Of a stretch of 64,000 nt of DNA, positions 6,669 to 22,672 are shown piece by piece. Position numbers and translations under genes: made by a program. The first letter of the stretch is position 1. Every line of letters starts with the position of its first letter. The notes beneath the pieces are model-generated. The model worked only from the letters and a program-made list of their open reading frames with translations. It did not search any database and was not told the DNA's origin. The stretch is from contig JBEKVV010000006.1 in the NCBI GenBank assembly GCA_049513715.1, positions 46,582-110,581 on the forward strand, in the 5' to 3' direction. The DNA is from Candidatus Bathyarchaeia archaeon (GTDB taxonomy: Archaea > Thermoproteota > Bathyarchaeia > 40CM-2-53-6).

Positions 6669-7280
6669 CTAGTTAGAAGTTTTCTGTAATCCTGCGAGTT
6701 CTGACGCTCGCTTAACAACCGTCTCGTAAAGTCGTTCGAACCTTCCATCGGTCAACGCCTTTTCTAAGTCCGCGTAGTCAGTGAGGTCGATTCCGTAGAC
6801 ATCTGAATATTCCTCATGCAACAGGCCGCTGTCTATTGGATGCCGGTCAAGCATCGCATAGAATGTTGCTTTATGTAGAATCGTGACGAAAACGCCGGCC
6901 AGTCCACCTCTCTCGAGCAAGTCTTGTCGTTGACTCATGAAGGGACAGTTGGCGAACTTTTTGACGTTGCAGGATTGGTTCCTTTCGTCGAAGAGTCTTG
7001 CATAGATTTGAGCCACGGTGTTCAGGAATTGCGCGTCCGAGGAGAGTTCTTCAACGGACTTGGTGTTGGGTGAGGCCGTGCTGGCTTGGGCCTTGGTTTG
7101 CTGTAGTGTTATCACCGCCCTTTGTGCTTCGGAGGCCGAATGATCCTTGGACCAGAGCAGGCATGACCACTCGCACTTTTGCTCTGCTTTGGTATCCAGC
7201 CGGAGGTCTCGAATGAAATCAGCAGCAAATTTCCCGGCAGCGTGGCTCGCTTGATTTTCTGACAACACAACACATCTCAC
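6669..7280 (-). CDS. Hypothetical protein
   Basis: 203-aa ORF filling the gap, co-oriented with pyrD; no motif recognised. Confidence 0.55.
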   Translation of the reverse strand: MRCVVLSENQASHAAGKFAADFIRDLRLDTKAEQKCEWSCLLWSKDHSASEAQRAVITLQQTKAQASTASPNTKSVEELSSDAQFLNTVAQIYARLFDERNQSCNVKKFANCPFMSQRQDLLERGGLAGVFVTILHKATFYAMLDRHPIDSGLLHEEYSDVYGIDLTDYADLEKALTDGRFERLYETVVKRASELAGLQKTSN

Positions 7281-7337
7281 TGAAGTGTGGGCAATTTCAA
7301 ATTAGGTTTTGCATATAATTCCTTTGTCCAGTCATCA

Positions 7338-8378
7338 TTACAGACCGGATCCGATGATTTGGTTAAGGGAGCTTGACTTGGAGCTTTCTAGAAGGCTGAG
7401 AAGTTCCTTGTTTATCTTAGCAATTACACTTGGGCCCTCATAGATTAGGGCGGTGTAAAGTTGTACTGAGGAGGCGCCTGCTTCAAAGGCACGCCAAGCG
7501 TTTAGTCCAGACGATATGCCGCCGCATGCGTTGATTGGAATCTTGCCTTCCGTGTTTCGGTAAATGTCTGCTACGATTCTAAGCATGTCCTCGAAGATTG
7601 GAGGGCCACTGAGCCCACCTGTTCCAATGCTGGCTCGCGGTTCATTGATCATCTTTGTGTTAGCCGCGGTTATACCATCCACAGAGTTCTTTACGCAGGT
7701 TTCAACGAGGTCTAGGACGTTCTCGCGCTCTTTCTCAGTGAAATACGGTGGAACCTTCACCCAAACTGGTTTTCCACGGCTCCTAACCGCGTTTGTGGCG
7801 TCCAGCAGGCTAGTGAGAACCGCTGGGTCTTGAAAAACTCTCACACCCACAGTGTTCGGCGTACTTATGTTCAACTCAATTCCATCTGCTAATGGCTCCA
7901 TGACGCGGTAACAGCCTGTAAACTCCTCAACGCTCAACCCCGATACGCTTACTATGATTCGTCCACGATGGTTCTTCTTCTGCTGGAGATTTCCAGCGAT
8001 TTTTTCAGCTCCGTCGTTTGGGAGCCCCATCGAGTTTACTAGGGAGTTCCCTGGGTACCGCCACACCCTCGGCTTGGGGTTACCTTCGCGGGGGTTCAAT
8101 GTAACCGTGCCCAAAGTCAAGTAGCCAAAGCCCATTTTGAAAAGTGCCCTGACCATCTCACAATTCTTGTCGAACCCGGCCGCAAGCCCAACAGGGTTTG
8201 GAAATTCCAGATGGCCGACCGAAGCGTTCAACCGTTCATCGTCAACGCAGAAACGGGAACGCAAGAGCGTCCATAACCAAGAACGTTTGAAGAAGCACTT
8301 CGCAATGCTATGTGCGGTCTCTGGCGGTGTAAGAAACATCGCTGGCTTGGCGATTGTTTTGTATAAACTCAGTTTCAA
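7338..8378 (-). CDS. pyrD: Dihydroorotate dehydrogenase, class 2 (quinone)
   Basis: PETAH N-terminus, NPVGLAAGFDKN, GNPKPR, NSMG, NISTPNT, GGLSG, VQLYTALIYEGP. Confidence 0.9.
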   Translation of the reverse strand: MKLSLYKTIAKPAMFLTPPETAHSIAKCFFKRSWLWTLLRSRFCVDDERLNASVGHLEFPNPVGLAAGFDKNCEMVRALFKMGFGYLTLGTVTLNPREGNPKPRVWRYPGNSLVNSMGLPNDGAEKIAGNLQQKKNHRGRIIVSVSGLSVEEFTGCYRVMEPLADGIELNISTPNTVGVRVFQDPAVLTSLLDATNAVRSRGKPVWVKVPPYFTEKERENVLDLVETCVKNSVDGITAANTKMINEPRASIGTGGLSGPPIFEDMLRIVADIYRNTEGKIPINACGGISSGLNAWRAFEAGASSVQLYTALIYEGPSVIAKINKELLSLLESSKSSSLNQIIGSGL

Positions 8379-8500
8379 GGAAAACTACTCAGGTGAATTC
8401 GCGGCTACACATGGCGTGCTAACTGTTTCATCGGTAAAATAGCCTTCCAATCCCTCCCGGAGTTACCTGGCAACTGCACGCACGATATCCCACAAGTATG

Positions 8501-8589
8501 AGTGTGTGTCCCACACTCTAACAAGGGAGGATGGGTGGCAGCCACCTATGAGAGGGTGGCATACACCCTCACGAGGGGTGCGACACCCC
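8501..8589. repeat. Four tandem short inverted repeats
   Basis: AGTGTG-N5-CACACT (8501-8517), GGTGGC-A-GCCACC (8534-8546), GAGGGTG-N5-CACCCTC (8552-8570), GGGGTG-CGA-CACCCC (8575-8589). Confidence 0.75.
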
Positions 8590-8594
8590 CAAGG

Positions 8595-8700
8595 CACACA
8601 CACGAAAAGCCACCAGAATAGACGGTTCAATTTTGGATGCTCGCACCACTAGACCCACACACACAAAATTACATAAACGACGACGAACGACGGTTCAATT
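8595..8700 (+). repeat. Degenerate ~60-bp dispersed repeat units with tRNA-3'-like core
   Basis: CACACACACGAAAA..GGTTCAATTTTGGATGCTCGCACCA..CACACACACAAAA..GGTTCAATT; 8625-8648 identical (24 nt) to 17961-17984. Confidence 0.8.
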
Positions 8701-8762
8701 ATGCGCATGTCGCGTGTCGTTAGAAAGTCATAAGAAACAATACGCATTAGTCTTGTCGTGTC

Positions 8763-10466
8763 ATGTTGAGCATGCGAGAACGTCGGATCCATTTTTGCTG
8801 TAGACACCGATTGCTTCGCAGGTTTATGTGTCGACTGGAAGGCCTGATTCTAATCACACTATTTCTAGGCCTATTGCTCCATAATGTTGGGAACGTTAAT
8901 GGTGATTGGCCTCCCTTCGAACATGTTTTGGGAAAGCAAACGATACTTGTTATTACTGTTGACTTCTCTGACACAGAGCATTCAGTCACCAAATCCTACG
9001 TAGAAGACATGATCTTTTCCAAAGTGAGTTCATATTTTAGAGAGGCTTCGTTCAACCAGACCTGGATTGAAGGCCAGGTCACCGATCGCTGGTACCGTCT
9101 ATCTGGTACAGTTACCTCCTATGCCGAACGTAATGCCTTAGGGCGTGGTAATCCGTGGAAAGACATGCAGCGGCTCGTTAGAGATGTAGTGTCGATCGCG
9201 GATCATGACGTTGACTTTTCGAAGTTCCGCTATGTTGTAATCGTCCACTCAGGCGAACTAAACGGAGCATGGGGATTAATCAGTCCATACGAAATCGTCA
9301 CTAAGGAGGGACCGCTATCTCGGAATTTTGCAATTCTCTCTGAACGGCATTCCCTCAGCGTTTACGCGCACGAGTTTGGTCACCTTTTCGGTTACCTTCC
9401 GGACATGTATGCAGTTCCAAGCGGCAACCCTGCCTTCGCTGGGCCATGGGATCTGATGTCATGCACATGTTACAGCAGTCCACAACACTTTTCGGCCTGG
9501 AGCAAGATTAAGATGGGATGGATTCATCAAAATCAAGTACTCACCGTAGATTCCTCCGCCGTAACAAGATTGCGACTCGACGCTCAAGAGGTCGAATCCA
9601 ATGGAGTGCTTGCTATAAGAGTCCAATTACCGAGCACGAATGCATACTATCTCTTAGAATTGAGAACTAAGATTGGTTACGATTCAGTGTTACCAGACCA
9701 AGGTGTTGTCGCCTATCTTGTTGATGAGCGCAAGACTGACTGGGGAGAATCTGTCCTAAGTGTTGTACAATACAACACCTCTTCGCTTGAACATGCCACA
9801 TTTGACATGCGTCCAGGCAAGGTCCCCGGATTCTTGGACGAGCTACACGGGTTCGGGCTTGTAGTAATATCTTCGCACGGCTCGTCCAGAGAGCTCTTGA
9901 TAGGAAAACTTACGGCTACACGACCTGCGTTAACGGCGTCCGCGCATATTCAAATGGCTAACGCAACGATCGAATGGGCATGGAGTGAAGGACGAATTCA
10001 GGGACTGGAAGCGGCTCGCGAAAGCTTTCTGGCCTCCTTCGACGCCTTCAACAACACTCATTATGAAGAGGCCGACCGATTAGCAACAGCTGCTGCAACG
10101 CTCGCGGCAAAGGCAACACGACCATCCTCATACGAGCAAGCGGACCAGATGATCAATTCAGCAAGGCAATTGTTGCTCAACTCGTCGTTCACAGTTCCTG
10201 AGGCTCTGGAGCTTCGTCAGCAAGCAGCCATAGCCCTGCAGAATGCCACGTCTTTATTCTATACGAATCGCTTTGACGAGGCACTAGTTCAGGCTCAGCG
10301 TTCATTGGACTTGCTGCGCGAAGCCAGAAAGGTCGAGGCATCCGTTCTAGAACAAGCTAGGCAGGCTGGAAGTAATCAGCGGACAACGACCTTCTCAATC
10401 ATAGCGATCATTGCCGTCTCGGCTATGGTTCTGACCTTGACGTTGGGAAAGAAGAGAAAGAAATGA
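8763..10466 (+). CDS. Membrane-anchored secreted M6-family (immune inhibitor A-like) metalloprotease
   Basis: Signal-like segment (start probably ATG 8826), ITVDFSD, HEFGHLFGYLPDMY, GPWDLMS Met-turn, C-terminal TM + KKRKK. Confidence 0.8.
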   Translation: MLSMRERRIHFCCRHRLLRRFMCRLEGLILITLFLGLLLHNVGNVNGDWPPFEHVLGKQTILVITVDFSDTEHSVTKSYVEDMIFSKVSSYFREASFNQTWIEGQVTDRWYRLSGTVTSYAERNALGRGNPWKDMQRLVRDVVSIADHDVDFSKFRYVVIVHSGELNGAWGLISPYEIVTKEGPLSRNFAILSERHSLSVYAHEFGHLFGYLPDMYAVPSGNPAFAGPWDLMSCTCYSSPQHFSAWSKIKMGWIHQNQVLTVDSSAVTRLRLDAQEVESNGVLAIRVQLPSTNAYYLLELRTKIGYDSVLPDQGVVAYLVDERKTDWGESVLSVVQYNTSSLEHATFDMRPGKVPGFLDELHGFGLVVISSHGSSRELLIGKLTATRPALTASAHIQMANATIEWAWSEGRIQGLEAARESFLASFDAFNNTHYEEADRLATAAATLAAKATRPSSYEQADQMINSARQLLLNSSFTVPEALELRQQAAIALQNATSLFYTNRFDEALVQAQRSLDLLREARKVEASVLEQARQAGSNQRTTTFSIIAIIAVSAMVLTLTLGKKRKK

Positions 10467-10556
10467 GAAATTTGTGTTCTGATCTAGGTTTCGTGCGCGG
10501 TTTTCACATTAACCACCAGGTCCAGTCGGACCACTTAGCCTGACATAACTCCAAGA

Positions 10557-10645
10557 TGGTGCGGGTAAGCTTGAGTAAAGGTGTCCTGAATCGGACCGTT
10601 GTTTTCGTGTGTGTGAGCTAGTGGTGCGCACACACACTAAAAACC
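10557..10645 (-). repeat. Inverted copies of the dispersed repeat
   Basis: Reverse complement of 10602-10628 is CGCACCACTAGCTCACACACACGAAAA versus 8642-8668 CGCACCACTAGACCCACACACACAAAA; second TGGTGCG at 10557-10563. Confidence 0.75.
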
Positions 10646-10893
10646 AGGGTTGCGTCGTGAGGAATTCGTATGGCATTGCCCGTCATGGCTTCACTTACGG
10701 GATCGGTTCGCCATGATTGGGATAAATCGATGACCATGAAATCGCCGTTGGTTGCGGTACATAAAGAGGCGTGTGTGGTTATCAGGCGTGAATACTGGCA
10801 ATTGCTTCCATAGGCGTTTCTTCTTTCACCATGTTCGTTCTCATTTGTGGTAATTGTTGACGGTTCTATTATACGCCGCAGAAGTTACTTTCC

Positions 10894-11439
10894 ATGATCG
10901 TGATGAATAGGCCAGAGCATAGTTCTCTCTCTGAAATCATGACGAGTAAAGTCGTCACAGTGGACATTAGTGAACGGGTAGAGGAAGCGTTGCGGCTTAT
11001 GGTTAGGTTTGATGTGGGGTGCGTCATCGTTACTGATAGGTCAAAGCCTGTGGGCATTGTTACTGAGAGGGACGTCACAAGGGCAGCTCTGCGAGGCGAC
11101 AGCCTGCTCAAACTCCCGGTACGAAGCCTGATGTCTAGGCCGTTACAGACGGCTCCACCGGACATGGAGACATGGCGTGCTTTTGAGATCCTTTTGAAGA
11201 CCGGAGTCAGAAGATTGCCAGTCGTCGAAAATGACAGGCTGGTCGGAATTGTTACAGAAAACGACCTCACCCGATGGGTCCTTCGAATTTTCTACGAACC
11301 CAATCTACCACCCGAGATCCGAAACCTTGTTCACAACCCAAGAATCGAAGCCTTTGCAGGGCGAGTGAAATGCCCCAACTGTGGCCATTATCAGGACGAG
11401 TGCATCTGCGTTAGAACCGCCGTGGCTGCAGAAGAATAA
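10894..11439 (+). CDS. CBS-pair protein with C-terminal Cys-rich (zinc-ribbon-like) tail
   Basis: Two CBS repeats (GIVTERD, GIVTEND); CPNC..ECIC tail. Confidence 0.85.
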   Translation: MIVMNRPEHSSLSEIMTSKVVTVDISERVEEALRLMVRFDVGCVIVTDRSKPVGIVTERDVTRAALRGDSLLKLPVRSLMSRPLQTAPPDMETWRAFEILLKTGVRRLPVVENDRLVGIVTENDLTRWVLRIFYEPNLPPEIRNLVHNPRIEAFAGRVKCPNCGHYQDECICVRTAVAAEE

Positions 11440-11560
11440 ACTCCCCAGTCGGATTCATAATCATCGTCATCAGGGTAATCACCGCAGCGGGCACCGTTCA
11501 AGAGTGCGGTCTCCTGTGAAGATGGCTACAGCCGAGCAGTTATTTCCGTCGACCGTTTTT

Positions 11561-11848
11561 TCATTTGAATGCGTAGATTGAATAGATAATTACGGCGAAA
11601 CCTAAACTTGTGACCATTGTGCCCATCGCGATTGCGGCTAGAAGGGCTTCACCGAATATCACATAGAAAAGCCCTTCAACGACCGTTCCAGCGGTTATGA
11701 GACCAAAGCCTAAGGCTACGTATCGCAAAGGTTCGCTTCTGTTCCGTCTGTAGCCCCTGTAGGCTAAGTATACTATGAAAGCTCCCAAGACGAGAGCCAA
11801 AACCTTCGGGATAGTTGCGAGCCATACGTCCACGGTAAACTCAATCAT
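11561..11848 (-). CDS. Small 3-TM membrane protein paired with upstream HTH regulator
   Basis: Three hydrophobic segments, AYRGYRR, IIYSIY; ATG 11848 likely start. Confidence 0.7.
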   Translation of the reverse strand: MIEFTVDVWLATIPKVLALVLGAFIVYLAYRGYRRNRSEPLRYVALGFGLITAGTVVEGLFYVIFGEALLAAIAMGTMVTSLGFAVIIYSIYAFK

Positions 11849-11865
11849 TAATGCTTCCTTCAAAA

Positions 11866-12225
11866 CTATACCGTTGGTATTGATGTCCACATTCGCGTGA
11901 ATCGATCCGCCACGTGGTCGTTCACGATTACATCGATCCTAACATCGCCTTTCTCGAAGCTAACATCTATGCGTCGCAGCAGGCTTCTGTACAGATCGTA
12001 CCATTTGCCGTCCGTCGTACGCCCCGACTTGACAGCAGCAATCAGCCCCGCCTCGACCAGCTCTTCAATGCGGCGGTAGACCGTGGTAATCGGTATTTCA
12101 TACTTCTTGCTCAGCTCCAAGGCGCTCATTGGGGACTCGATGGTCGCAGTGAGTATTTTCCTAGAATACTCATCAGCCATCGCTGAGAGAATTCGTTGCT
12201 TTGCTGGTTCCTCGCTGACTATCAA
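11866..12225 (-). CDS. Winged-helix (ArsR-like, archaeal) transcriptional regulator
   Basis: ADEYSRKIL, SALELSKKYEIPITTVYRRIEELVEAGLI. Confidence 0.85.
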   Translation of the reverse strand: MIVSEEPAKQRILSAMADEYSRKILTATIESPMSALELSKKYEIPITTVYRRIEELVEAGLIAAVKSGRTTDGKWYDLYRSLLRRIDVSFEKGDVRIDVIVNDHVADRFTRMWTSIPTV

Positions 12226-12334
12226 AGGCGCGCCCTAATCCGCTGCTTATCAGGCTAGTAAGCTTGGTTGTATGCCTTTTAAGCTAACGTAAAATAAGCT
12301 CATCGTTAATGCCCGTCAGATCCGGGTGTGCTAA

Positions 12335-13486
12335 TTGCGAGTCGGCATTGTAGGTGTAGGACAGACACCTTTCGGAAAACTTTCGGATTCTTCAAGTCGT
12401 GAACTGGTGGCCGACGCTTTCAGGGAGGCTTTGTCAGACGCAGGCCTAGCTAGGAAGGATATTTCCACACTCATAGTATGCTCAGGATCGCAGTACGATA
12501 GGCAACGTTCCCCCGCGGGTATTATGGCGGAGTACGTTGGCCTGAACCCAACCCCGACGCTCCATGTGGAAGCAGCTTGTGCTTCCTCGGGCGTGGGGGT
12601 CAGAGTCGGTTGGTCGATGATACAGGCTGGTTTGCATGATACCGTCGCTGTTGTCGGCTTTCAGAAGATGACTGAGCTTGACGCAGCTGAGATTCAAGAC
12701 GTGATGAGTCGGTCGGGCGATGTTATGTGGGAATCCCCTTTCGGCCCCACCATGCCCGCATATTACGCTATGCACGCGAGGGCTCACATGAAACGGTATG
12801 GAACAACGGAGGAGCAATTCGCCCTCGTCTCGGTGAAGAACCATAAGTATGGTGCCACGAACCCGCTGGCGATGTTCAAGAAAGAGATCACAGTGGAAGA
12901 TGTGCTAAAGTCTCGGGTTGTGGCGAGCCCACTGAAGCTTCTTGATTGTTGCGCGAACGCCGATGGTGCAGCTTGCGTGATAATGGCAGGAGAGAAGTTT
13001 GCCAGAAAGACGACTGATAACCCGGTTTGGATTGCGGGCCTAGGATTGGCGTCCAGCCCCATGTCCCTCACAGGCCGTAGCGAGTTTGCGAGCTTCGAAT
13101 GCAGCGTCCACGCCGTGAAACAGGCCTACAAGATGGCCAAAGTGACGGCCCGCGACTTGGATGTGGCTGAGGTTCATGACAGTTTCACCTCTGCCGAGAT
13201 AATCGATTATGAAGACTTGGGTTTCTGCAGAAAGGGGATGGGAGGGAAACTAATCCAGGATGAACAAACATCCATTGGAGGAAGAATTCCCGTAAACGTT
13301 GATGGGGGGTTACTGGCTAAAGGCCACCCTGTTGGCGCAACAGGCGCGTCCCACATAATCTCAATTGTGAAGCAACTTAGGAATCAAGCGGGCCCCAACC
13401 AAGTTCCGAAGGCGAACGTCGGCTTGGCACACAACATTGGCGGAATCGGAATGTACGCCGTCTGTACAGTGCTTCGGGCAACTTGA
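12335..13486 (+). CDS. Thiolase / acetyl-CoA C-acetyltransferase (SCP-x type)
   Basis: EAACASS catalytic Cys, AEVHDSF, GGLLAKGHPVGATG, HNIGG. Confidence 0.9.
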   Translation: MRVGIVGVGQTPFGKLSDSSSRELVADAFREALSDAGLARKDISTLIVCSGSQYDRQRSPAGIMAEYVGLNPTPTLHVEAACASSGVGVRVGWSMIQAGLHDTVAVVGFQKMTELDAAEIQDVMSRSGDVMWESPFGPTMPAYYAMHARAHMKRYGTTEEQFALVSVKNHKYGATNPLAMFKKEITVEDVLKSRVVASPLKLLDCCANADGAACVIMAGEKFARKTTDNPVWIAGLGLASSPMSLTGRSEFASFECSVHAVKQAYKMAKVTARDLDVAEVHDSFTSAEIIDYEDLGFCRKGMGGKLIQDEQTSIGGRIPVNVDGGLLAKGHPVGATGASHIISIVKQLRNQAGPNQVPKANVGLAHNIGGIGMYAVCTVLRAT

Positions 13487-13514
13487 TTTTGACCAGATGG
13501 GAGGTTGTTAGAGT

Positions 13515-13943
13515 ATGGGGTTCGAGAAGTTTGGGTTCATATCTTTCTCCAGCCAAACCAAGGTAGCAAAATTCGTCGACTATTTACAGGATGGAAAAAT
13601 CTACGGCACCAAATGCAAGGAGTGCGGTCGTCTTCAATTTCCTCCAAGGGCACATTGCAATCGGTGCTTATCGAGCAAGTATGAATGGGAAGAACTGTCA
13701 GGCGACTGCACTCTCATAACATTCACGAAAGTCGAGGCCTCACCAGCCGCATTCAAGGAACAGTCGCCGTACGTGATTGGCCTTGCAGAATTTGTTGAGG
13801 GCCCAAAGGTTTTCGCATGGATGGACAAATCGATATCCGAAGGTGAAGTCACAATTGGAATGAAATTGAAGCTGAAATCCTCGAAGCTTCCAAATGGAAA
13901 CCTGTCGTACACTCTTTTCAGAACCGAAACAGAGCACGATTGA
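13515..13943 (+). CDS. DUF35 Zn-ribbon/OB-fold thiolase partner
   Basis: CKECG..FPPRAHCNRC, PYVIGL; directly after thiolase with GGAGG RBS. Confidence 0.9.
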   Translation: MGFEKFGFISFSSQTKVAKFVDYLQDGKIYGTKCKECGRLQFPPRAHCNRCLSSKYEWEELSGDCTLITFTKVEASPAAFKEQSPYVIGLAEFVEGPKVFAWMDKSISEGEVTIGMKLKLKSSKLPNGNLSYTLFRTETEHD

Positions 13944-14730
13944 TGGGTTGTACTGAATTCGAGGAGCGTGAACCCTAGCGCAGACGAGCCTATGAAGTTT
14001 AGAACTCAAACCGGGTGACTGTGTGGTCGCCCGTTACGGCAGCAAGCTGGCAAATACTCGTCGTCTATTTGTTCTTCGCTTGCTTGCGGTTTTTTCTCTG
14101 TCACGAAGCCCTCTCAACCATACTACGGCATCGCTTAAATGATTTTTCAAACAGAAAATTCCGCTAACAAGAAACTCGACGTTCAAATCAGGTGGCTCAG
14201 CCCAAGCTATCCAGAACTTAGGTCATGCATGCCGCAAGACGTCGATCAATTACGCGTCATTACTGAGGTATAGCGTGAGTTGGCCTTTCTTTTGGAACCA
14301 GTCAGTGACTTGGTATCCCCCATCGTCCAGTTTTGCGGATGTGAGTAAGCTCAAAAGCCCCTGTAAAATTGGTGAATCGTATTTTGTACCCGATAGATAC
14401 CAGAACCCATTCAAACCTAACAGAAGTATTTCAGAAACGGTCAATCTTCCTACGAACAACAGCTTCTTTCTGTACCGTCTAATGAAATGCAGGTACTGTC
14501 TAGTTCTGATTCGCTCGTAAATCAGGACTGGCACGCGTCTTTTGAGTTGGACGAGCTGTTCTAGGCTGGCCGAGGTTCTCGCCTCGATTAGCGCAAAACA
14601 TCAGTTTCCATACGGCATATATATGAAATATACAGCCGCCCGAAACTCAGCCTAACCTGTGCAGTTTGATGGGGTAGTTCACGGAGCAAGGAACATTTAG
14701 GTCTCCATCATCTAATGAGGCTCGCGTCTC

Positions 14731-15516
14731 ATGGGGCAGGAGTTCACACTGCGGCTATCAGGCAAAGTTGCCATCATCACAGGGTCGACCGGAGGAATAG
14801 GCCATGCTGCCGCGTTGGAATTGGCGAAGGAAGGTGCGAATATTGTTCTCCAATACAGGTCGAAGAAAGTTGAAGCGGATAATCTAGCGGGGAGGATTGC
14901 CGCCCTAGGCCGCAGAGCAATACTTGCGCAAGTCGATTTTACAAACGTGAGAACAGCTCCGAATGAAGTTGAGCAGATGGTTAATGGAACCATAGATCAG
15001 CTCGGCAGAATCGATGCACTAGTAAACCTAGCCGGCTACCCCGCAAAGGGTGAGTGGAACAAACGCTTCATGGATCTATCGCCTGAGGATTTCTTCAAAC
15101 CCATCAATGTTGACCTCTTCGGTTCTTACCTCTGCGCCCGAGCAGCAGCCCCTTACTTCCTGAAACAGAAGAGCGGGGTTATAGTGAATGTGAGTTCGAC
15201 ACCCGCGCTCAGCGGTCACGATAGAGGTTTTGCGTTTACTGTTGCGAAGGCAGGGGTGATTGGGTTAACGAAAGCCCTCGCCTTTGAACTCGCCCCTCAC
15301 GTGCGCGTGAACACTCTGGCTCTGGGAAATGTGGAGACCACATGGGTCAGCGAGCTGAGCAGTGAAGAGCTGAGCAAGCAGCGTCAGGATAACCTCATCA
15401 GAAGGTTTGGGTCCCCAGAAGAGATTGCTAAGAGTATTGTATTTCTTTGCTCCAACGAATCCTCGTTTCTAAATGGGCAGACGATAGTCCTCGATGGTGG
15501 GAGCACACTTCACTAA
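14731..15516 (+). CDS. SDR-family oxidoreductase (atypical, FxxxK)
   Basis: TGSTGGIG, NLAG, VNVSS, FTVAK, VRVN, GQTIVLDGG. Confidence 0.85.
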   Translation: MGQEFTLRLSGKVAIITGSTGGIGHAAALELAKEGANIVLQYRSKKVEADNLAGRIAALGRRAILAQVDFTNVRTAPNEVEQMVNGTIDQLGRIDALVNLAGYPAKGEWNKRFMDLSPEDFFKPINVDLFGSYLCARAAAPYFLKQKSGVIVNVSSTPALSGHDRGFAFTVAKAGVIGLTKALAFELAPHVRVNTLALGNVETTWVSELSSEELSKQRQDNLIRRFGSPEEIAKSIVFLCSNESSFLNGQTIVLDGGSTLH

Positions 15517-15550
15517 CGTGGTACGAAACTGCGAGTGGAGCTGGGATTGA

Positions 15551-16432
15551 ATGAATCACGCAGTAGAGGATGACAAGACCCGTTTCGGGTTATTGGCTGT
15601 CATCCTAATTCTCATCGCAGTCTTCGCGGTTTTCCGGTTCGCATTGTACACTCTGGAGAGTGTGTACGGCATCTCAGTGCCCTTCCCGCAAGTCACGATT
15701 GCTCTAACGTGGGCAGTGTTGGGGCTCGTCGGAGCGTATGTGGTTGGCCGTACGATTCAGACCACGACAGCACCGCTCATCGGAGCCCGAGGCGCGTCCA
15801 CGGCCCGCAAGGTGGTCACCGTGACACTGATCTTTGCAGTCTTGATTGTAACCCTGGTGAACCTGCGCGTCGACGTTTCGGGATATTTGGTGAGCCTCGG
15901 AATCAGTGCCGTTGTGATTGGGTTTGCTGCGCAGGCTACCATTGGGAACTTGATCTCGGGAGTTTTGGTGTTGATTAGCAAGCCTTTCCGGAAGGGTGAC
16001 TACATCAAGGTCAACATGCCCGGAGCCCCCATAGAGGGAACGATTGACGAGATATCGTTCCTGCGAAGCCGGATTTTCACTAATGATGGGGTTTCAATTT
16101 CCGTCCCAAACACAGTCATGCTCGCCGTTCCGATTAGCAATTTCACGGTCTTCGAGCACCGCCCCCTTGTCCTCAACATATCACTCGAACGCAATGTCTC
16201 CGTAGATGATTTCAAGAGCAAAATTGAGTCGGCAATGCTCGCGAATGGGGAAAATATGCACGAGGTTCGCCTGTACGTGAAGGGTCTAGATCAAGATTCA
16301 ACGAACATGGAACTCTGGGTTCATGTTGCAACCCAAAGTTTTCTCAAAGAACGAAGTCTCATCGTACAGAGCATCAAGAAAATCTGCGAAAAAGAAAACA
16401 TACCCTTAAAGAAAATCGAACTCCAAAGCTAA
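15551..16432 (+). CDS. MscS small-conductance mechanosensitive channel
   Basis: TM segments, GFAAQATIGNLISG, KPFRKGDYI, VPN. Confidence 0.88.
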   Translation: MNHAVEDDKTRFGLLAVILILIAVFAVFRFALYTLESVYGISVPFPQVTIALTWAVLGLVGAYVVGRTIQTTTAPLIGARGASTARKVVTVTLIFAVLIVTLVNLRVDVSGYLVSLGISAVVIGFAAQATIGNLISGVLVLISKPFRKGDYIKVNMPGAPIEGTIDEISFLRSRIFTNDGVSISVPNTVMLAVPISNFTVFEHRPLVLNISLERNVSVDDFKSKIESAMLANGENMHEVRLYVKGLDQDSTNMELWVHVATQSFLKERSLIVQSIKKICEKENIPLKKIELQS

Positions 16433-16705
16433 CCAACAGAAACCAAGCAGCACCCAGCCTTCAGAACTTTACGCTGGGAGCTATATTGTTCCAGTTGTCC
16501 TTTATTGTGGTCGACGCAAATGCGCTCGCAGTCTACGTCCTCGGCGCTGCAGGGCTCCTTCAATCACTAATGAATTGGGCAGACTGGGCATTCTTCTAAT
16601 TGCAGCCGACTAGAGGCCAGTTTTCGTATTCCACATTCACGAGGTGGAATACAAGAACTCAAGACCTGCAAGCGGATGGTCGAGGAAAACGGCTCCTCTA
16701 TTTAT

Positions 16706-16842
16706 CGCACCCACACTAAATTGAACTAACGACCGGTTAGAATTCTCTTGTCCGCACCATTGATCTCACACGCACAAGAAACTACTAGAATCATGGTTCA
16801 ATTTCTGCCGGTCGCACCAGCTATACTGCACACACGAAAACG
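16706..16842 (+). repeat. Tandem 60-bp-period copies of the dispersed repeat
   Basis: GGTT at 16735 and 16795; CGCACCA at 16753 and 16813; CACAC..AAA tracts near 16708, 16767 and 16829. Confidence 0.75.
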
Positions 16843-16847
16843 TATAA

Positions 16848-17840
16848 TCAATTGACCCTGTCCGAGATAGGCTCGCCCTTCAGAAATCGCTTTACATTTT
16901 CCGCGGCATGAATCATGGCATTTTGCAGGGAGCCTGGCACTATGGCCGAGTTATGTGGTGAACCAAGAAAATTCGGTAGATCGAAAAACGGGTAGTTTAC
17001 GTGAAAGTCTCCCGTGGTGTACGGCTCATGCCACCAAGCGTCCAGCGCCGCAGAGAACCGGGGATGAGTCTTGAGGTGCTCGAATAGCGCCTTTTCTTGA
17101 ATAATCGCACCGCGAGACACATTCACCAGTATGGCGTCTTCCCTCATCCATCCCAGTTCTCTGACTCCTAGAAGCCCATTAGTTGAGCTGGTCAAAGGAA
17201 GGGCGATGAGGACGATATCGGCCACCCGCAACACTCGCTCAAGGTCTTTGAGGGTTCCAACGAATTCCACGGGTTCACTTGTGTTACCGGTCGTGTTGAT
17301 CGCAAATATCTTGACGTCGAAGCATCGCAAGAGTCGGCCTGTAGCTTTCCCAATTCCACCAAAGCCCAAGATTGCGCAAGTAGAGCCGTGAAGCATACGA
17401 TTCATGTTGTGTTGGTCGAAGTTGGCGGCTTTGAGTTTACTATGCCGGTCCAAGAGGTTCTTTTCGAGGGCTAAGATCATTGCTAGGGCGTGTTCTGCCA
17501 TAGGTTCTGCATAGGCTCCAGCGTTGCTCGCAACTAGAATGTTGGGAGGTAGCCTGGAGAAGGGTACTTGGTCAGCTCCGGCAGAGAGAAGTTGCATTAT
17601 TCGTGCACCCGTGATTCCTGCGAATTCCTCGGCGTTTCTCAGCTCGCGGTCGGGGAACCATGTCAAGATGGCGTCAGCTCTTCTAAGTTGCACCAGTCGC
17701 TCTTCTTGTCGAAGTTCAGGGAGAAACACAACTTGAGCCGTTTTGCCGAAAACGTTGCTGAGCGTGGTTCGGTCTTCTTTGTCTGTGTCAAAGGTGACCG
17801 CGATCACGTGATCGACGCGTCCATTGGAGCTTGCTTTCAT
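16848..17840 (-). CDS. D-isomer-specific 2-hydroxyacid dehydrogenase
   Basis: SAGAD, ILGFGGIG, LVNVSRG, LDAWWHEP, SPHNS. Confidence 0.88.
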   Translation of the reverse strand: MKASSNGRVDHVIAVTFDTDKEDRTTLSNVFGKTAQVVFLPELRQEERLVQLRRADAILTWFPDRELRNAEEFAGITGARIMQLLSAGADQVPFSRLPPNILVASNAGAYAEPMAEHALAMILALEKNLLDRHSKLKAANFDQHNMNRMLHGSTCAILGFGGIGKATGRLLRCFDVKIFAINTTGNTSEPVEFVGTLKDLERVLRVADIVLIALPLTSSTNGLLGVRELGWMREDAILVNVSRGAIIQEKALFEHLKTHPRFSAALDAWWHEPYTTGDFHVNYPFFDLPNFLGSPHNSAIVPGSLQNAMIHAAENVKRFLKGEPISDRVN

Positions 17841-17916
17841 AAACTTTCGTCCATCGTCTCTTTGATGCCGACGTAAGGTATGTTGGCTTATATCTCAAGC
17901 TTCTGACTTCAAGTGA

Positions 17917-17984
17917 TTTGCTTGTGTGCAATCATCATGGTGCGCACACACACAACTGGAGTTCAATTTTGGATGCTCGCACCA
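17917..17984. repeat. Back-to-back inverted and direct copies of the dispersed repeat
   Basis: TGTGTGCAATCATCATGGTGCG then CACACACAC..GTTCAATTTTGGATGCTCGCACCA; 17938-17953 identical (16 nt) to 10622-10637. Confidence 0.8.
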
Positions 17985-18051
17985 GCATAATCGTCATCAT
18001 CGCGCACCGGCAGATCCACAGAAGTGTATTTATTTCTCGTAATAGCGTTTT

Positions 18052-19524
18052 TTGCAAGGCTTCAGATTGATTCGTCGGTTAGTTGCACTGTTCCTACTGA
18101 TCTTGGTTCTATCGTGCTACTTTTCGGCAACGTCTGAGGCGCAAGCAGCGGCTACCGTTCCGGATATCAGCTACGTGTTCGGCTCGCCCGTCACCTTCGC
18201 GACGCACACCGAGCTCGTGGGCTATGGCTTCTCCTTTGGCCCCTCAGACGGTCAGTTCGGAGCAATCCCCGCGGGCGGCGCGAGCTACACCTTCTACGGC
18301 ACCGCCGGCTCCACGCGTTCGTGCGCCGGAACTCCAAACGTCAAGGGCGCATTTACGTTCGCGGGCACGCTTGATCATGTGACCGGAAGCAATGGCTGTA
18401 GGAGGCTGTTTGGTCATGGAGATGGCCCGGCGGGTTGGGTCTTCGACGCGGACTATGCGGGCGGCGGTCAGATCGTGCGCTTCGAGGGTGGAGGAAAGAA
18501 GGGGTGGCTGATGCCCTTCCACGGCGAGGTCTGGTGGCAGAACCCGGCGACCCCGGATCACAAATGCAACAACGTGAACTGCTTCTACTCATCGCTTGGG
18601 TTGGCGGCGTCAACCGATGACGGGAAGACCTTCAAGGTTGTGGGGCAGATCCTCCAGCCGAGCCAGCCCATGTCAGTCTTCACCGGCGGAGGCAAGAACA
18701 TGGCGGTCGGTTACGGCTCGCTGGTCGTCGCTGATGCGAACGGCAAACACCTCGACAATCCGCCAGCAGACCCTCGCCGTGCCTACTTCTATCTCTTCTA
18801 TACTGACCTCTTGCCGGGGTTGCCTGGCGTGTGCGCCAATGCGATCTGCATGGGTGCCGCGCGTGCACCGTACGCCGACGTGATAGCGGCCGCGCTCTCC
18901 AGCGACCCGCACAAAGCCGCGAAGGTGTTCCACAAGTACGACGGAGCTTCACCGAACCCTTGGACCCAGCCCGCTACCAGCGACACGCCCGACCTGTCGG
19001 GGACCGCTGGGAAGTACGCGCCTCTCTGGACCGACGAGCCCGGAGGCGCCGAAGTGATCTACGACAGCAGCTTCGATGTGTACCTAGCCGTCTACCAGTC
19101 CAGTGCCGGCATCAAGCTGCGAGCCTCAAGCGATCTGATCCATTGGTCCGGACCGATCGGCGCCCCATATCACGAGGCAGGCCGCACACTGTATTACCCG
19201 ACCCTCATGGGCGAAACCGGAGACCCAACCATCGCGGGACCGGCACCGCGAGTTTATTTCAGCAGTTTCCTCACCGGTTCATTCCCGGACTACGCAACGT
19301 CGGTCTTCGAGAGCGTCAGCTGTACGCTCTCGACCCAGACCTCGTTGACCACGACAAGTGTAAGGACTAGCGCCTCGGTGTCTAGTTTTGCAACAACATC
19401 ATCTGTTACGATGCCAAGCTTACAGTACTCTTGGCAAGGCGAGATTGGATTACTCGTGACGGCTGTTGTAGCTGGCGTTCTCGGGGGCATAATCGTTTTG
19501 AGAAAACGCGGAAGAAAGCCCTAG
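18052..19524 (+). CDS. Secreted, C-terminally anchored Asp-box/beta-propeller protein (glycosidase-like)
   Basis: Signal peptide, Asp-box STDDGKTF, SSDLIHWS, Ser/Thr linker, TM + RKRGRKP. Confidence 0.7.
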   Translation: MQGFRLIRRLVALFLLILVLSCYFSATSEAQAAATVPDISYVFGSPVTFATHTELVGYGFSFGPSDGQFGAIPAGGASYTFYGTAGSTRSCAGTPNVKGAFTFAGTLDHVTGSNGCRRLFGHGDGPAGWVFDADYAGGGQIVRFEGGGKKGWLMPFHGEVWWQNPATPDHKCNNVNCFYSSLGLAASTDDGKTFKVVGQILQPSQPMSVFTGGGKNMAVGYGSLVVADANGKHLDNPPADPRRAYFYLFYTDLLPGLPGVCANAICMGAARAPYADVIAAALSSDPHKAAKVFHKYDGASPNPWTQPATSDTPDLSGTAGKYAPLWTDEPGGAEVIYDSSFDVYLAVYQSSAGIKLRASSDLIHWSGPIGAPYHEAGRTLYYPTLMGETGDPTIAGPAPRVYFSSFLTGSFPDYATSVFESVSCTLSTQTSLTTTSVRTSASVSSFATTSSVTMPSLQYSWQGEIGLLVTAVVAGVLGGIIVLRKRGRKP

Positions 19525-19744
19525 TCTCCACGTCTCCGTCTTTCATGAGTGGGTCACGTTATGGCAAGTCTGGCCGTTGCAAATAATACCGCCGCTAGAA
19601 GTCATTGGCTGAACGTGAAGTTGCAGTATAGCTGTTCGCAGGGCGGGGGCATCGCGAGACGGAGTTCTATTTGAATGAGCCGATATCTATGAAAGACAGG
19701 CTAGAGGCCATGATGAGGTTTCGAAACTTCTTCCGATGGCAGAA

Positions 19745-19962
19745 TGTGTTGGTGTGATGGTGCGACGACGACGAAAAAACGGTAACGAGTGGTCGCGGTT
19801 TCTTGTTGCGTGGTGTGTGGTTGCTGGTGTGCTAGAATGCGCTTCAACAGATGTCAGCCGTAGGTGATCATCAGAGCTACGGTTTCAGTGTTGCAGGCGC
19901 CGTCTTGGAATACTTCCTAACAAGAAGAAGGATTCTGCGTGTGGTACTATTGGTGTGTGTGC
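19745..19962. repeat. More degenerate copies of the dispersed repeat
   Basis: TGGTGCG-ACGACGACGAAAAAACGGT (19758-19783); GTGTGG..TGGTGTG tracts at about 19810-19831 and 19938-19961. Confidence 0.5.
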
Positions 19963-20380
19963 AACAGCTGACCCATCAGAGGGGGCGTAAGTCTCCACAT
20001 GCACGATTTTGTCGTTTGGGCATCAAAACCTCGACCCACAAGAACGGGGAGTGAAACTGAGAATGAAGGGGGGGGTCCACCCTTTTGCCGAAAATGCAGC
20101 AAACTGAGAAAGCCGTATCGGACAGATGAAATGGGCCCTCTTTCTACACGAAATGGGCCTACTTCATCGGAAAGTGGTCTCTACGCATACACACCCTCAC
20201 CAGCCCAGTATCCGAAGGGAACTGTCTACGGATTGAGCTTGGCTTGTCTGCAGACTTTAGTCTACAGCAAACCCCACAGAAGTCTATGAACCTAGCAGGT
20301 TGCTTTGCACGAAAATGATGTCTAGCCTATGTTATACACTGAAGCAGAGTGGAATCCACGATCCGAACAGGTTTCGTGTT

Positions 20381-20707
20381 CTAGAATCTGAACAAGACTT
20401 TCTCGAAGTCTACGATTTTTCCGTCACTGACTTCGACATCTTCTTCTCTTAACATTCGAATCTTCTTTTCCACGGTTTTTCCGGAGGTTTTCCCTGAGAA
20501 ACCTCCAATTGACCCGTCGGATTTTACTACTCTGTGGCAGGGTACTCTTGGGGCGTAGGGATTGTGTCGACAAGCGTTCCCAACCGCTTGGTAAGCTCTG
20601 GTGTTCAGTTTCTTAGCAATCTGGCCGTAAGTCGTAACTTTACCTTTTGGGATTCTCTCCATCAGTTTCCAGACTTTCTCCTCGAACTTCAACCTGAAGG
20701 TCACCAC
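20381..20707 (-). CDS. ogt: O6-alkylguanine-DNA alkyltransferase (single-domain MGMT)
   Basis: IPKGKVTTYGQIA, AVGNA, NP..VPCHRVV active site. Confidence 0.85.
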   Translation of the reverse strand: MVTFRLKFEEKVWKLMERIPKGKVTTYGQIAKKLNTRAYQAVGNACRHNPYAPRVPCHRVVKSDGSIGGFSGKTSGKTVEKKIRMLREEDVEVSDGKIVDFEKVLFRF

Positions 20708-20912
20708 GTCTCATATGTCGATTGTTCCAAGCTAAAAGTGATAGTGGTTCTCTGAGTAGATTCTCCAGCACCTTGCAGTGCAGATGCCCGTAAAATTCTA
20801 GGGAACGCTTAAAGGCGCAGCAAATTCCCCGTACCATGATTTCGCTTGTCCGCCCCCCCATGCTGAGCCAAACATTTTCCCCGGCAACTGGACGGTTAAG
20901 ACACAACAACTG

Positions 20913-21833
20913 TTGCGCATGTACGAGCAATCTTTCGTTCAGGACTGGAACCCGGTTACCCTGTCTTGGGACTCGTTGGACCCGACGGGTTTGGATTTGA
21001 AGGAACGGGTTGCTCAGGCTTATTGGATGGCGAAGCTCGCATTATTCGAAAAATCCGGCATTGGAGCCTTCGGCACAGCTATGCTGAAAGCAGCCATGTA
21101 TGACATGGAGGACCCAACCAAGAAATTCCTAGCCGCCGTAACCTTCGACGAATGCAGGCACGACGAAGTCTGCCGCAGAGCATGCAACAAACTCTGCCCC
21201 AACTTCCCCTACAAATACAATCCCACAACCAACTTCGAAAAAAGGGCGCTGAAGAACATTCAAGCCCTGTATGAAAATGGGAAACGCTACTGGAAAGGCT
21301 TCATGATGGCCTGGGACAAATATCCTCTGGAACTGATCTTCTCAAGCTTCTTCTTCGCCGAAATCGGGGCACAATTAATCTTCAACACCGTAAGCGATCT
21401 ATCAAACATTAAACTCTACAAAGAAGCGTTTCAAAACGTCACAATCGACGAATCCCGCCACCTAGCAGGAACCATGTCTCTGCTCGATAATCTCGTGAGA
21501 GATTTCCCAGCTGAACAGAAACTAATGATAACCCGCCAGATGAAACACGGCTTCATCTTCCTCTCACCCCTACTCTACAAACCCATGTCGATATTCTGGC
21601 AACTACCAAAAGACTTTGAACAAATCGACCGAGAAATGGAAGAAGTGGCACGCAACTCGGGCCTAGGCGTCCCCACCATGGACGAAAAGTCGAAGGGCTG
21701 GTTGAAAGCAATAGAGCGACGAAGGGAACAGATCGAAAAACTAGGCGTCCTGATTCCAGCTATTCACGAAATCAACTTGGAAGGAGAAGAAGTGGACATT
21801 AGAAAAGACGAACCAGTGGCTACACCATTCTAG
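20913..21833 (+). CDS. Ferritin-like diiron carboxylate protein
   Basis: Two E...ExxH sets (LFEK..DECRH; AEIG..DESRH). Confidence 0.75.
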   Translation: MRMYEQSFVQDWNPVTLSWDSLDPTGLDLKERVAQAYWMAKLALFEKSGIGAFGTAMLKAAMYDMEDPTKKFLAAVTFDECRHDEVCRRACNKLCPNFPYKYNPTTNFEKRALKNIQALYENGKRYWKGFMMAWDKYPLELIFSSFFFAEIGAQLIFNTVSDLSNIKLYKEAFQNVTIDESRHLAGTMSLLDNLVRDFPAEQKLMITRQMKHGFIFLSPLLYKPMSIFWQLPKDFEQIDREMEEVARNSGLGVPTMDEKSKGWLKAIERRREQIEKLGVLIPAIHEINLEGEEVDIRKDEPVATPF

Positions 21834-21865
21834 GCGCTTTCTGCAAAGTACTCCTGGTAAGGCCA

Positions 21866-22672
21866 TCATTTGCCCGTGAAGACTGGTTTCCGTTTCTCGA
21901 AGAACGCTTTCACAGCTTCAATATGGTCCGAAGTTGCTCCAGCAATCTCCTGAAGATAACTCTCATACCCAAGCACCGTTTCCAAGTCTGATGATATGGA
22001 TTTGTTGAGGGCTCGCTTCGTGAGAGCGATGCCCCTAGGCGACCCTGCAGCGAATTTCGCTGCAAGCTCGCGGGCAGTGGACATCAGTTGATCCGCTGGA
22101 ACCACTTTCGAGACTATACCAAACCGTTCAGCATCTTTACTCGACAATTCGTCTCCGGAAAGCGCCAATTCCAGAGCTTTTGAGAACCCAACCAGTCGTG
22201 GAAGAAAGAAACTTGTTCCAGAATCTGGGGCAAGCCCTATCTTGACAAAGGCTTGAAAGAACTTGGCTGTGTCGGAGGCTATGCGAAGGTCGCATGAATA
22301 GGCAATCCCAGCTCCCGCACCTGCTGCAGCACCATTCACTGCTGCAATGACCGGTTTCTCCATTCCTCGGATTCGGCGAATTATCGGATTGTATTTGTAG
22401 AGAAGTCTCTCGCCGAGTTTCGGGTTCTCACCTCGCTCATACTGTCCCTTCAAGGCCTGGATGTCCTCTCCGGCACAGAACGCGCGTCCCTTTCCTGTTA
22501 TGATCAGGCATCGAATCTCAGGATCCCGCTCAGCAATCTTCAGGGCTTCTTGAAGCTCTTGCCCCATCTTCTCATTCACTGCATTGAGAACATCCGGCCT
22601 GTTGAGTGTGATCGTTGCGATGCCCTGTGACTTTTCGTAAATGATGGTCTGAGAAGTTGGCGAAGCCGTCAC
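21866..22672 (-). CDS. Enoyl-CoA hydratase/isomerase, PaaG-like
   Basis: LNRPDVLNA, FCAGED, AVNGAAAGAG, FVKIGLAPDSG. Confidence 0.85.
   Translation of the reverse strand: MTASPTSQTIIYEKSQGIATITLNRPDVLNAVNEKMGQELQEALKIAERDPEIRCLIITGKGRAFCAGEDIQALKGQYERGENPKLGERLLYKYNPIIRRIRGMEKPVIAAVNGAAAGAGAGIAYSCDLRIASDTAKFFQAFVKIGLAPDSGTSFFLPRLVGFSKALELALSGDELSSKDAERFGIVSKVVPADQLMSTARELAAKFAAGSPRGIALTKRALNKSISSDLETVLGYESYLQEIAGATSDHIEAVKAFFEKRKPVFTGK

Follow-up and report, generated by a model that had tools for sequence, protein, structure and literature searches.

A tRNA-Gly-like repeat unit at the borders of acquired genes in a Bathyarchaeia genome

What are the short motifs resembling tRNA 3′ ends that recur between accessory genes in a 64,000-nucleotide stretch of a Candidatus Bathyarchaeia archaeon genome (GenBank assembly GCA_049513715.1, contig JBEKVV010000006.1, part of which forms the stretch, here called the window), and do they take part in the movement of those genes? 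The uncultured Bathyarchaeota cycle carbon in peat and sediments, where they are abundant, and little is known of how they acquire genes. A preliminary description of the window had proposed that the motifs could be recombination sites of an integron- or pdif-like gene capture system, or ends of non-autonomous elements, using tRNA-derived sites. We show that the repeats, hereafter units, border modules acquired by horizontal transfer, many of them consisting of one gene, with at least one border exactly at the edge of a unit, and the presence of units at the edges of inserted genes suggests a gene-capture mechanism. The assembly comprises 2.79 Mb in 11 contigs (~51% G+C, completeness 99.4%, contamination 8.8%; contigs are numbered C1 onwards, the window being part of C6), and DNA of the organism occurs in wetland and peat metagenomes. 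Several small contigs are repeat-rich with mutually shared ends, so that some of them may be mobile elements or strain variants rather than chromosome.

Insertions in the window and the units at their borders

The window was compared with 8 genomes of the same genus by DNA search followed by tblastn against the fetched loci; these species representatives have core genes only ~70% identical to those of the genome described here, and their intergenic DNA does not align with it. The 8 relatives share a gene order (g6669, pyrD, CBS, two small genes, thiolase, OB-fold protein, small gene, SDR, (MscS), g20913, enoyl-CoA hydratase) from which the window departs twice. Insertion 1 is an M6-family peptidase gene at the pyrD–CBS junction, and insertion 2 comprises a D-2-hydroxyacid dehydrogenase gene and a gene for a 490-amino-acid (aa) protein, together with an ogt-like gene. 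The block contains 11 gene junctions, and units occur here only at the two with insertions. The pyrD–CBS junction is without the M6 peptidase in 7 of the 7 relatives fetched there, with a gap of 139–140 nt in five, and neither the dehydrogenase nor the 490-aa nor the ogt-like gene lies between MscS or SDR and g20913 in the 8 relatives. No unit was found in the relatives' loci for this block, including the pyrD–CBS and MscS junctions. The right edge of insertion 1 is sharp: a hairpin form of the unit ends at 10643 and the remnant of a gene, intact there in one relative (G020), starts at 10645, 2 nt away, which places a breakpoint at the edge of the element. The left edge lies near 8460, ~135 nt ahead of the first unit, so not all edges are units. 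The earlier suggestion that the flanked genes are accessory was therefore borne out, as they are absent from the conserved order of the relatives rather than being syntenic core genes, with a breakpoint at a motif edge.

A 55-position sequence model of the unit (R1) was built from 34 copies in the window and the rest of the genome. The consensus of aligned copies is (t)GAC-GGTTCAA(A)TT-nnGnT-GCYCGCACCA-ctaga-CCCACACACAC-(G)AAAA, with three conserved blocks and, between them, 5-nt spacers of variable sequence; CACACACAC-AAAA and a spacer, often AACGCCTGAACTGAC, precede many copies. Copies stand alone, in tandem ~50–65 nt apart, or with an inverted CGCACCA-N5-CCCACACAC part at their left. All 7 R1 matches in the window at E ≤ 1 fall within 8620–19957, with none in the remaining ~52 kb; their orientation is mixed, and the cassette genes lie on both strands. 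The units and their associated genes are as follows.

8488..8596, plus strand: leader with three hairpin-like GGTG..CACC palindromes, joined to the first unit (sequence reading)
8597..8668, plus strand: full unit, the genome's best R1 match (59.5 bits, E 2.8e-17), with head CACACACGAAAA at 8597-8608, G block GGTTCAATTTTGGATGCT at 8624-8641, core CGCACCA at 8642-8648 and tail ctagaCCCACACACACAAAA at 8649-8668
8686..8704, plus strand: weak G-block-like piece GACGGTTCAATTATGCGC (R1 E = 1 only), 59 nt ahead of the M6 start codon
8763..10466, plus strand: M6-family metallopeptidase gene, cargo of insertion 1 (Pfam PF05547, TIGR03296)
10557..10597, minus strand: degenerate unit GGTCCGATT...CCCGCACCA (sequence reading; not among the R1 matches at E ≤ 1)
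10602..10643, minus strand: hairpin form TTTTAGTGTGTGTG-CGCACCA-ctagc-TCACACACACGAAAA, a tail-only site after GTGTGTG (R1 match 10600-10628, E 0.0041)
10645..10731, minus strand: remnant, first ~29 codons of a gene (tblastx 62% over 29 aa, E 5.7e-9, against L013 2592-2678 of G020)
16734..16781, plus strand: diverged unit GGTTAGAATT...CCGCACCA ttgatCTCACACGCAC (R1 21.9 bits, E 1.5e-5)
16790..16841, plus strand: full unit (R1 37.8 bits, E 1.7e-10), its tail stopping 7 nt from the dehydrogenase stop codon
16848..17840, minus strand: D-2-hydroxyacid dehydrogenase gene, cargo of insertion 2 (Pfam PF02826, PF00389)
17938..17953, no strand given: inverted arm TGGTGCG joined to CACACACAC
17956..17992, plus strand: G-only half-site (R1 model positions 3-39 only, E 1.7e-8)
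18052..19524, plus strand: gene for the 490-aa protein, cargo of insertion 2, without named family
19740..19830, minus strand: degenerate tail and core pieces (TCGCACCA at 19758-19765 minus; CACACCA and CCACACACCA runs), below the R1 threshold
19933..19957, minus strand: tail-like piece (R1 14.3 bits, E 0.0038)
20381..20707, minus strand: ogt-like gene (methylated-DNA-protein-cysteine methyltransferase domain), within insertion 2 (TIGR00589 E 4.8e-23)

Much of the motif architecture in the preliminary description was reproduced. The 24-nt identity of 8625–8648 with 17961–17984, the 16-nt identity of 10622–10637 with 17938–17953 and the spacing of exactly 25 nt from GGTT to CCA at 8624, 16735 and 16795 are all present in the sequence. 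Five intergenic regions had been said to share the motif; those at ~8.6, 10.6, 16.75 and 17.95 kb do so, whereas the region at 19.8 kb retains degenerate traces only. The half-site at 17956–17992 has a G block and CGCACCA identical to 8625–8648, without a CACACAC tail after the CCA. The proposed rule of plus-oriented copies to the left of each gene and minus-oriented copies to the right is clean for the M6 gene but fails for the other two, since the dehydrogenase has plus units on both sides along with the short inverted arm at 17938–17953, and the 490-aa gene is flanked on its right by degenerate pieces alone. The predicted enrichment over shuffled sequence holds for the spaced pattern GGTTCAATT-N9-CGCACCA (≤2 mismatches), with 3 occurrences in the window (8624, 16795, 17960) against 0.06 expected, and for CACACACGAAAA (≤1 mismatch), with 4 against 0.41 expected, counts that none of 100 shuffles reached in either case. 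TCGCACCA alone barely exceeds chance (6 against 2.1 expected, with 5 of 100 shuffles reaching 6).

The leader at 8488–8596 is 85% identical over 178 nt to C6:1568-1743, which likewise ends in a unit, and two to three short GGGTG-N5-CACCC palindromes stand beside units at three loci (window 8515-8590, C6:1600-1680 and C1:544.72-544.78 kb, i.e. L041 18725-18775). The hairpin at 10602–10643 and positions 8584–8608 together form an inverted repeat (I7). The weak piece at 8686–8704 may be a promoter instead of a unit, because it resembles a segment of the conserved CBS promoter at 10858. The sequence GACGGTTCTATTATACGCC at 10858 was itself considered as a sixth copy of the motif and rejected, being that conserved promoter region and present in the intergenic sequences of 7 of 7 relatives.

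The cargo is foreign. The 490-aa protein has a signal peptide and a C-terminal anchor and matches no Pfam or NCBIfam family, so that its earlier designation as an Asp-box protein was not upheld. Its foreign origin is indicated by a stretch of 61% G+C (0.609 at 18001–19000, against ~0.51 for the genome) and by close bacterial homologues: proteins of 60–82% aa identity are encoded in metagenome-assembled genomes (MAGs) from eight or more bacterial groups, with Acidobacteriota, Nitrospirota, Binatia, Chloroflexia, Verrucomicrobiia and Gemmatimonadales among the labels, and also in one MAG of Bathyarchaeota. The gene is a conserved one, widely exchanged across many soil bacterial phyla and without an assigned function. 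In another genome of the same genus (G017), an 80% identical copy lies between units within a 16-kb stretch holding 9 unit matches, and a second copy there is without units. G017 also encodes, elsewhere (L016), a 62% identical homologue of the dehydrogenase, with an ogt-like gene directly downstream, an order reversed here; a circular intermediate could lie behind the reversal, although this is a single case and the dehydrogenases are just 62% identical. A pattern scan of species-representative genomes with a tblastn check yielded no close relative of the M6 peptidase in 21 candidate stretches.

Distribution of the unit and its relation to tRNA-Gly

The profile scan of this genome and its relatives, as the preliminary description had envisaged, revealed a genome-wide and lineage-specific family. 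An nhmmer search gave 73 matches in this genome at E ≤ 1, 51 of them at E < 1e-3. The R1 model, with 62 matches here, detects the unit in two genera: 20 of 22 genomes in this one carry it, at up to 84 copies each, and 10 of 10 in the other, at up to 73. Three other genera of the family present single weak matches only (3 of 22, 2 of 3 and 0 of 1 genomes); the repeat's range is limited to these two genera, both of one Bathyarchaeota family. R1 E-values reach ~1e-13 for copies in species whose genes are only ~70% identical, and the unit is far better conserved than the surrounding intergenic DNA. A strict pattern recovered at least 125 metagenome stretches, and 43 of 80 metagenomic unit loci carry at least 2 units. 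Copies are enriched at contig ends and on small contigs.

Within the genome, 90 GCACCA sites with unit-like neighbours were sorted by position using crude open reading frame (ORF) calls (ORFs ≥100 aa), which placed 69 in intergenic regions, 2 at contig ends and 19 inside ORFs, with intergenic DNA making up 16.7% of the genome. The 53 site-bearing intergenic regions comprise 27 tandem, 13 convergent and 13 divergent ones, proportions near those of intergenic bases overall (54% tandem, 19% convergent, 27% divergent). Relative to the next gene, 32 of 49 units point in the same direction and 17 in the opposite one, at no fixed distance (40 to >1000 nt from start codons), a mixed placement unlike that of a promoter or terminator. 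Clustering of 511 ORFs from the 80 metagenomic loci revealed no recurrent neighbour, the largest family being present in 3 of the 80.

Sorted by their neighbours, the same sites fall into 29 full sites, 15 with the left (tRNA-like) block only and 46 with the right (tail) block only, and all three classes meet at GCACCA, as would be expected if a full site recombined with an unrelated one. GTGTGTG precedes 22 of the 46 tail-only sites, which creates a hairpin form, GTGTGTG-CGCACCA-N5-CACACAC, with GT/CA arms of 9–14 bp placed 12–14 nt apart. Tried as single-stranded DNA in 3 cases, this form was more stably folded than shuffles in 2 (z −3.2 and −3.9, the former for the copy at 10602–10643 with −12.8 kcal/mol), whereas the full unit folds no better than shuffles (z −0.6). 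The full unit has no dyad symmetry and no consensus fold, RNAalifold giving 0 pairs across 34 copies. Composite copies carry inverted arms of 20–28 nt, the inverted CGCACCA-N5-CCCACACAC arm being carried by ~14 copies of this genome and by 23 of 147 metagenomic ones; terminal inverted repeats, a feature of miniature inverted-repeat transposable elements (MITEs), are thus found in composite copies only, and no target-site duplication was seen in six composite copies inspected by eye. Rfam gave no match to the unit at the gathering score or at E ≤ 1, ARAGORN found 0 tRNA genes in the window, and the would-be T-stem positions vary among copies without pairing. With neither predicted pairs nor an Rfam or ARAGORN match, the unit is not a tRNA-like RNA and reads as a linear DNA motif of three conserved blocks. 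Identical variants of the N5 spacer reappear at distant loci.

The suspected kinship with the 3′ end of tRNA-Gly is supported by direct comparison. A genuine tRNA-Gly(GCC) gene of the genome, with acceptor GCGGCCG and an Rfam tRNA score of 42.4 bits, has the 3′ end ...GGTTCAAATCCCGGCGGCCGCACCA followed by ctggaCCCACACACAAAA, and shares with the units the T loop (GGTTCAAAT), CGCACCA and the trailer. After a second Gly-like gene (anticodon CCC, read by eye) come the tail and two tandem units. Introns are abundant in the genome's tRNA genes. The unit differs in T-stem and acceptor positions from every tRNA end compared, and its derived letters (ATT for ATCC, GCYCGC for GGCCGC) occur in no resident tRNA; that units share them argues for descent from a common master and not for separate decay. 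Ends like that of tRNA-Gly with the same tail number 4 in this genome and were found in 9 of 22 genomes of its genus, and tRNA-Gly ends with a CACAC-rich trailer occur also in the second unit-bearing genus (2 of 10 genomes) and, as weak cases, in a genus devoid of units (5 of 22). Longer and more tRNA-like fragments are present on C5 (182.5 kb) and C6 (5.05 kb). A module of two units and a 164-aa ORF is duplicated at 97.6% identity (C5:175026-175801 and C6:4217-5000); the C6 copy directly adjoins the long tRNA-Gly(CCC)-like fragment at C6:5.05 kb, and on C5 three large genes intervene, the module and the tRNA-Gly-like fragment being separated by ~7 kb. In a second repeat family, a tRNA-like T arm (GGGGTCAAAATCCCC...) comes after TATATGTACCGGTAAATTGGGG. 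The family has 38 copies at ≤3 mismatches on C5, C4, C7, C10 and C6 (e.g. C2:8914, C5:206483) and none in the window; it shares islands with the units, often abutting them or following real tRNA 3′ ends.

Elsewhere, units border modules that are 84–98% identical between species with core genes only ~70% identical. At C1:526-546 kb, an 11-kb block ~70% identical to all relatives runs up to a unit pair (locus 18856-18959; C1:544.8 kb), past which lies a gene 84–88% identical in two other species, situated elsewhere in both and in one case again near units. At the start of C2, 11 kb with two unit pairs form a mosaic of modules 90–98% identical to other species, where each module has a different context. 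In the genome G008, a module starts 10 nt past a tail, at a point where the genome described here has an extra glyoxalase gene. The genes around units are mixed and include virus remains (RusA, a terminase fragment, an HNH nuclease). The TBP gene occurs as numerous paralogues in each genome (74–90% nucleotide identity across species), some of them in unit-rich islands (L025 4274-4843 = C2:4274-4843), and TFB, TFIIS-like and Spt5 genes are also found near units.

The recombining enzyme and the nature of the repeat

The genome has five PF00589 matches, none on C6, so that the absence of a recombinase noted for the window extends to the whole contig; a search with PF16795 gave no match. Two IMG/VR contigs carry a unit, and one of them is a head-tailed virus contig (major head, adaptor and neck proteins) in which a 363-aa tyrosine integrase starts 256 nt from the unit. 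A 49% identical integrase of 369 aa is encoded in the genome described here at C1:532 kb. A 159-aa ORF beside the unit in this virus contig (L042 19385-19864) has three homologues in the genome (C2:54.1, 76.7 and 420.2 kb), each within at most ~330 nt of a tRNA gene. No Y1 (IS200/IS605-type) transposase was detected, PF01797 having 0 matches in the 99.4%-complete genome with controls positive in 6 of 14 genomes. An IS240-type DDE gene is situated 900 nt away from one unit; none of the four TnpB-like loci in the genome is beside a unit. TnpB/Cas12f-like zinc-ribbon matches occur at contig ends (window 63762-63956, i.e. C6:110343-110537; C7:92903-93097; C8:65342; C8:75165), and the ends of C6 and C7 are 92% identical over ~300 nt. 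No autonomous element with unit ends was found, in the absence of a systematic search.

The reading that we tentatively prefer, with somewhat less than even confidence, is that the repeats are recombination sites, or the scars of such sites, of tRNA-Gly-targeting integrative elements acting in trans. Integrative mobile elements of this lineage (viruses and smaller modules) would use a site copied from the 3′ end and trailer of tRNA-Gly; a tyrosine integrase provided in trans, with head-tailed viruses like the unit-bearing one as a possible source, would join DNA at units; each event would leave full units or half-sites sharing the invariant heptamer CGCACCA; and repeated events with loss of most of the element would leave captured genes bracketed by units. 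This reading is suggested by the combination of a tRNA-derived sequence, placement where acquired DNA begins or ends, half-sites that share an invariant heptamer as their meeting point and a copy in a virus. Sites of this kind in integrative elements are among the subjects reviewed for archaeal tyrosine recombinases in PMC8371274. A number of observations weigh against it. The recombinase that the preliminary description had suggested looking for next to other copies is present on the one virus contig, but a unit lies within ~3 kb of only 1 of 15 integrase-family loci, estimated to be about the chance rate, and 0 of the 80 metagenomic unit loci have a homologue of any of three integrases. The virus-type integrase family occurs in 12 of 59 genomes and is missing from two that have 55 and 35 units, and a scan of the 15 integrase loci revealed no integrase-encoding element flanked by direct units. 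Tandem units often have no cargo between them, which simple integration and excision does not yield, and the 22 hairpin copies look more like a transposable or repetitive extragenic palindromic (REP)-type repeat; a recombination-site model explains neither. Several module borders do not coincide with units, and several edges are found 12 nt past a stop codon, away from any unit; since the relatives' junctions are without units, the insertions were not made into a site conserved in the genus. Contigs of 4 public runs span 6500–22000 without differences and in the present arrangement only; they contain no cassette-less form and no circle, contigs being blind to rare variants. The segment 7900–11400 is complete in 24 public DNA runs, with no RNA run among those listed, and apparent 'joints' in run contigs have sides of 21–34 nt that are other copies of the repeat.

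A self-propagating repeat better accommodates some of these points, namely the few nearby integrases, the cargo-free tandems, the hairpin form and insertions at places that are unit-free in relatives. The units would then be selfish, non-autonomous, MITE- or REP-like repeats moved by an enzyme encoded elsewhere or lost, piling up in insertion-tolerant islands or seeding rearrangements, with the tRNA-Gly likeness reflecting the origin of the master copy. Such an explanation, which we regard as possible but rather doubtful, is consistent with the high copy number and tight conservation across species, the hairpin and composite arms, the clustering of units, the lack of a recurrent neighbour gene, the near-background spread over convergent, divergent and tandem regions and the recurrence of N5 variants at distant loci. 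It sits poorly with the missing target-site duplications, the lack of a Y1 transposase or an autonomous partner, a full unit devoid of fold or dyad symmetry, and half-sites that break exactly at CGCACCA, unlike the leftovers of cut-and-paste transposition. Under this reading and under that of a recombination site, the repeat is both a product and a marker of mobile DNA, the difference being whether it is the joining site or a passenger. We consider it unlikely that the units serve a dispersed gene-cassette exchange, a platform-less analogue of integrons in which single genes, including bacterial ones, are captured, shuffled and passed between species at tRNA-Gly-tail sites by a recombinase in trans.

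The remaining explanations are less probable still. A host cis-acting DNA signal selected beside accessory genes (a promoter for a TBP/TFB paralogue, a terminator, an insulator or a chromatin-protein site) would account for three blocks with 5-nt spacers, like a composite protein-binding site, for the resemblance of GGTTCAA(A)TT to the TATA-like segment of the conserved CBS promoter, for the majority of units co-oriented with the downstream gene and for TBP and TFB genes in unit-rich regions; in its promoter version, transcription would start ~25 nt downstream of the TTCAAATT block. We hold it to be improbable in view of the lack of a preferred distance to start codons, the many units facing the 3′ end of the next gene, convergent regions that are not depleted, orthologous junctions of relatives without units and neighbour genes that are mutually unrelated. 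Inert, decaying tRNA-Gly fragments displaced by old integrations, with an accidental cassette look, would fit the tRNA-Gly likeness and the longer tRNA-like fragments on C5 and C6, and PMC4383910 presents displaced tRNA fragments as a known by-product of integration. Independent decay would not yield the shared derived characters or the E-values of ~1e-13 across species, however, and this origin seems more improbable again. Small-RNA genes or processing signals, such as tRNA-like 3′ ends, are suggested by the exact T-loop-to-CCA spacing and the encoded CCA; the absence of an Rfam family, of an ARAGORN tRNA in the window and of a consensus structure in the 34 copies, with T-stem positions varying unpaired, makes them very improbable.

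Significance and comparison with known systems

A repeat that marks the borders of single-gene acquisitions would make it possible to map this lineage's flexible genome in metagenomes by sequence and would help to find the responsible enzyme. If the sites are active, they would represent a gene-capture route distinct from integrons, transposons and classical tRNA-gene islands; if they are only selfish repeats, they would still be a useful island marker and would frequently account for breaks in the assembly of these genomes. Literature searches turned up general work on tRNA attachment (att) sites and archaeal integrases, and among the papers listed none had a title or abstract on this repeat.

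The closest known counterparts are tRNA att sites and their displaced fragments. She et al. 2001 reportedly treated 'gene capture in archaeal chromosomes', and Williams 2002 is said to have dealt with sublocations of tRNA att sites. As there, the site here extends from the 3′ part of a tRNA into the trailer, lies at edges of acquired DNA and has a virus copy beside an integrase. Unlike there, 60–90 copies per genome, mostly far from tRNA genes, form a sequence family of their own, with tandems without cargo, inverted pairs and a hairpin form, an integrase that is almost never adjacent and cargo that is often a single gene. Displaced tRNA fragments and capture at tRNA genes are well known, and a many-copy dispersed family bracketing single acquired genes is a variant that we did not find described.

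Integrons hold gene cassettes with attC sites in a platform of integrase gene, attI and promoter. The likeness lies in diverse, gene-sized modules bracketed by a repeated site, with the recombinase outside the cassette. The integron-like reading of the preliminary description nevertheless fails on the features compared, as the units have no platform, genes lie on both strands with units in mixed orientation, the full unit shows no fold resembling the imperfect palindrome of attC, and the sites are dispersed rather than arrayed. The pdif modules of Acinetobacter plasmids have XerC/XerD sites in inverted pairs, each dif-like site consisting of inverted 11-nt arms around a 6-nt spacer. An inverted site pair likewise brackets the module at the M6 gene, but the pdif-like alternative could not be sustained on the features compared: the full unit has no dyad and is not dif-like, the arms of the hairpin form stand 12–14 nt apart where a dif-like spacer has 6–8 nt, a clean inverted pair is found at 1 of the 3 window genes only, and many modules have direct or single units.

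REP elements and bacterial interspersed mosaic elements (BIMEs) with their RAYT transposases, and MITEs, are short intergenic repeats. The units resemble them in being short, intergenic, high-copy and lineage-specific, in forming tandem and inverted clusters and in having a hairpin form that folds, and differ in the absence of a Y1/RAYT gene and of visible target duplications and in a most conserved form that is tRNA-derived and not palindromic. Tandems of cis-mobilizable elements (CIMEs) as well as integrative and conjugative elements (ICEs) arise by serial integration at one chromosomal att site in direct orientation. Such accretion likewise produces arrays of modules separated by att copies without an integrase of their own, whereas the sites described here are scattered and in both orientations. 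A phage–ICE tandem is the subject of PMC13651849. In Thermococcales, as set out in PMC5495485, the pTN3 integrase drives chromosome rearrangement. The parallel is that the integrase of a mobile element acting on tRNA-like sequences reshapes the host chromosome; the difference is that large inversions between tRNA genes take place there, whereas here dispersed repeats surround single genes.

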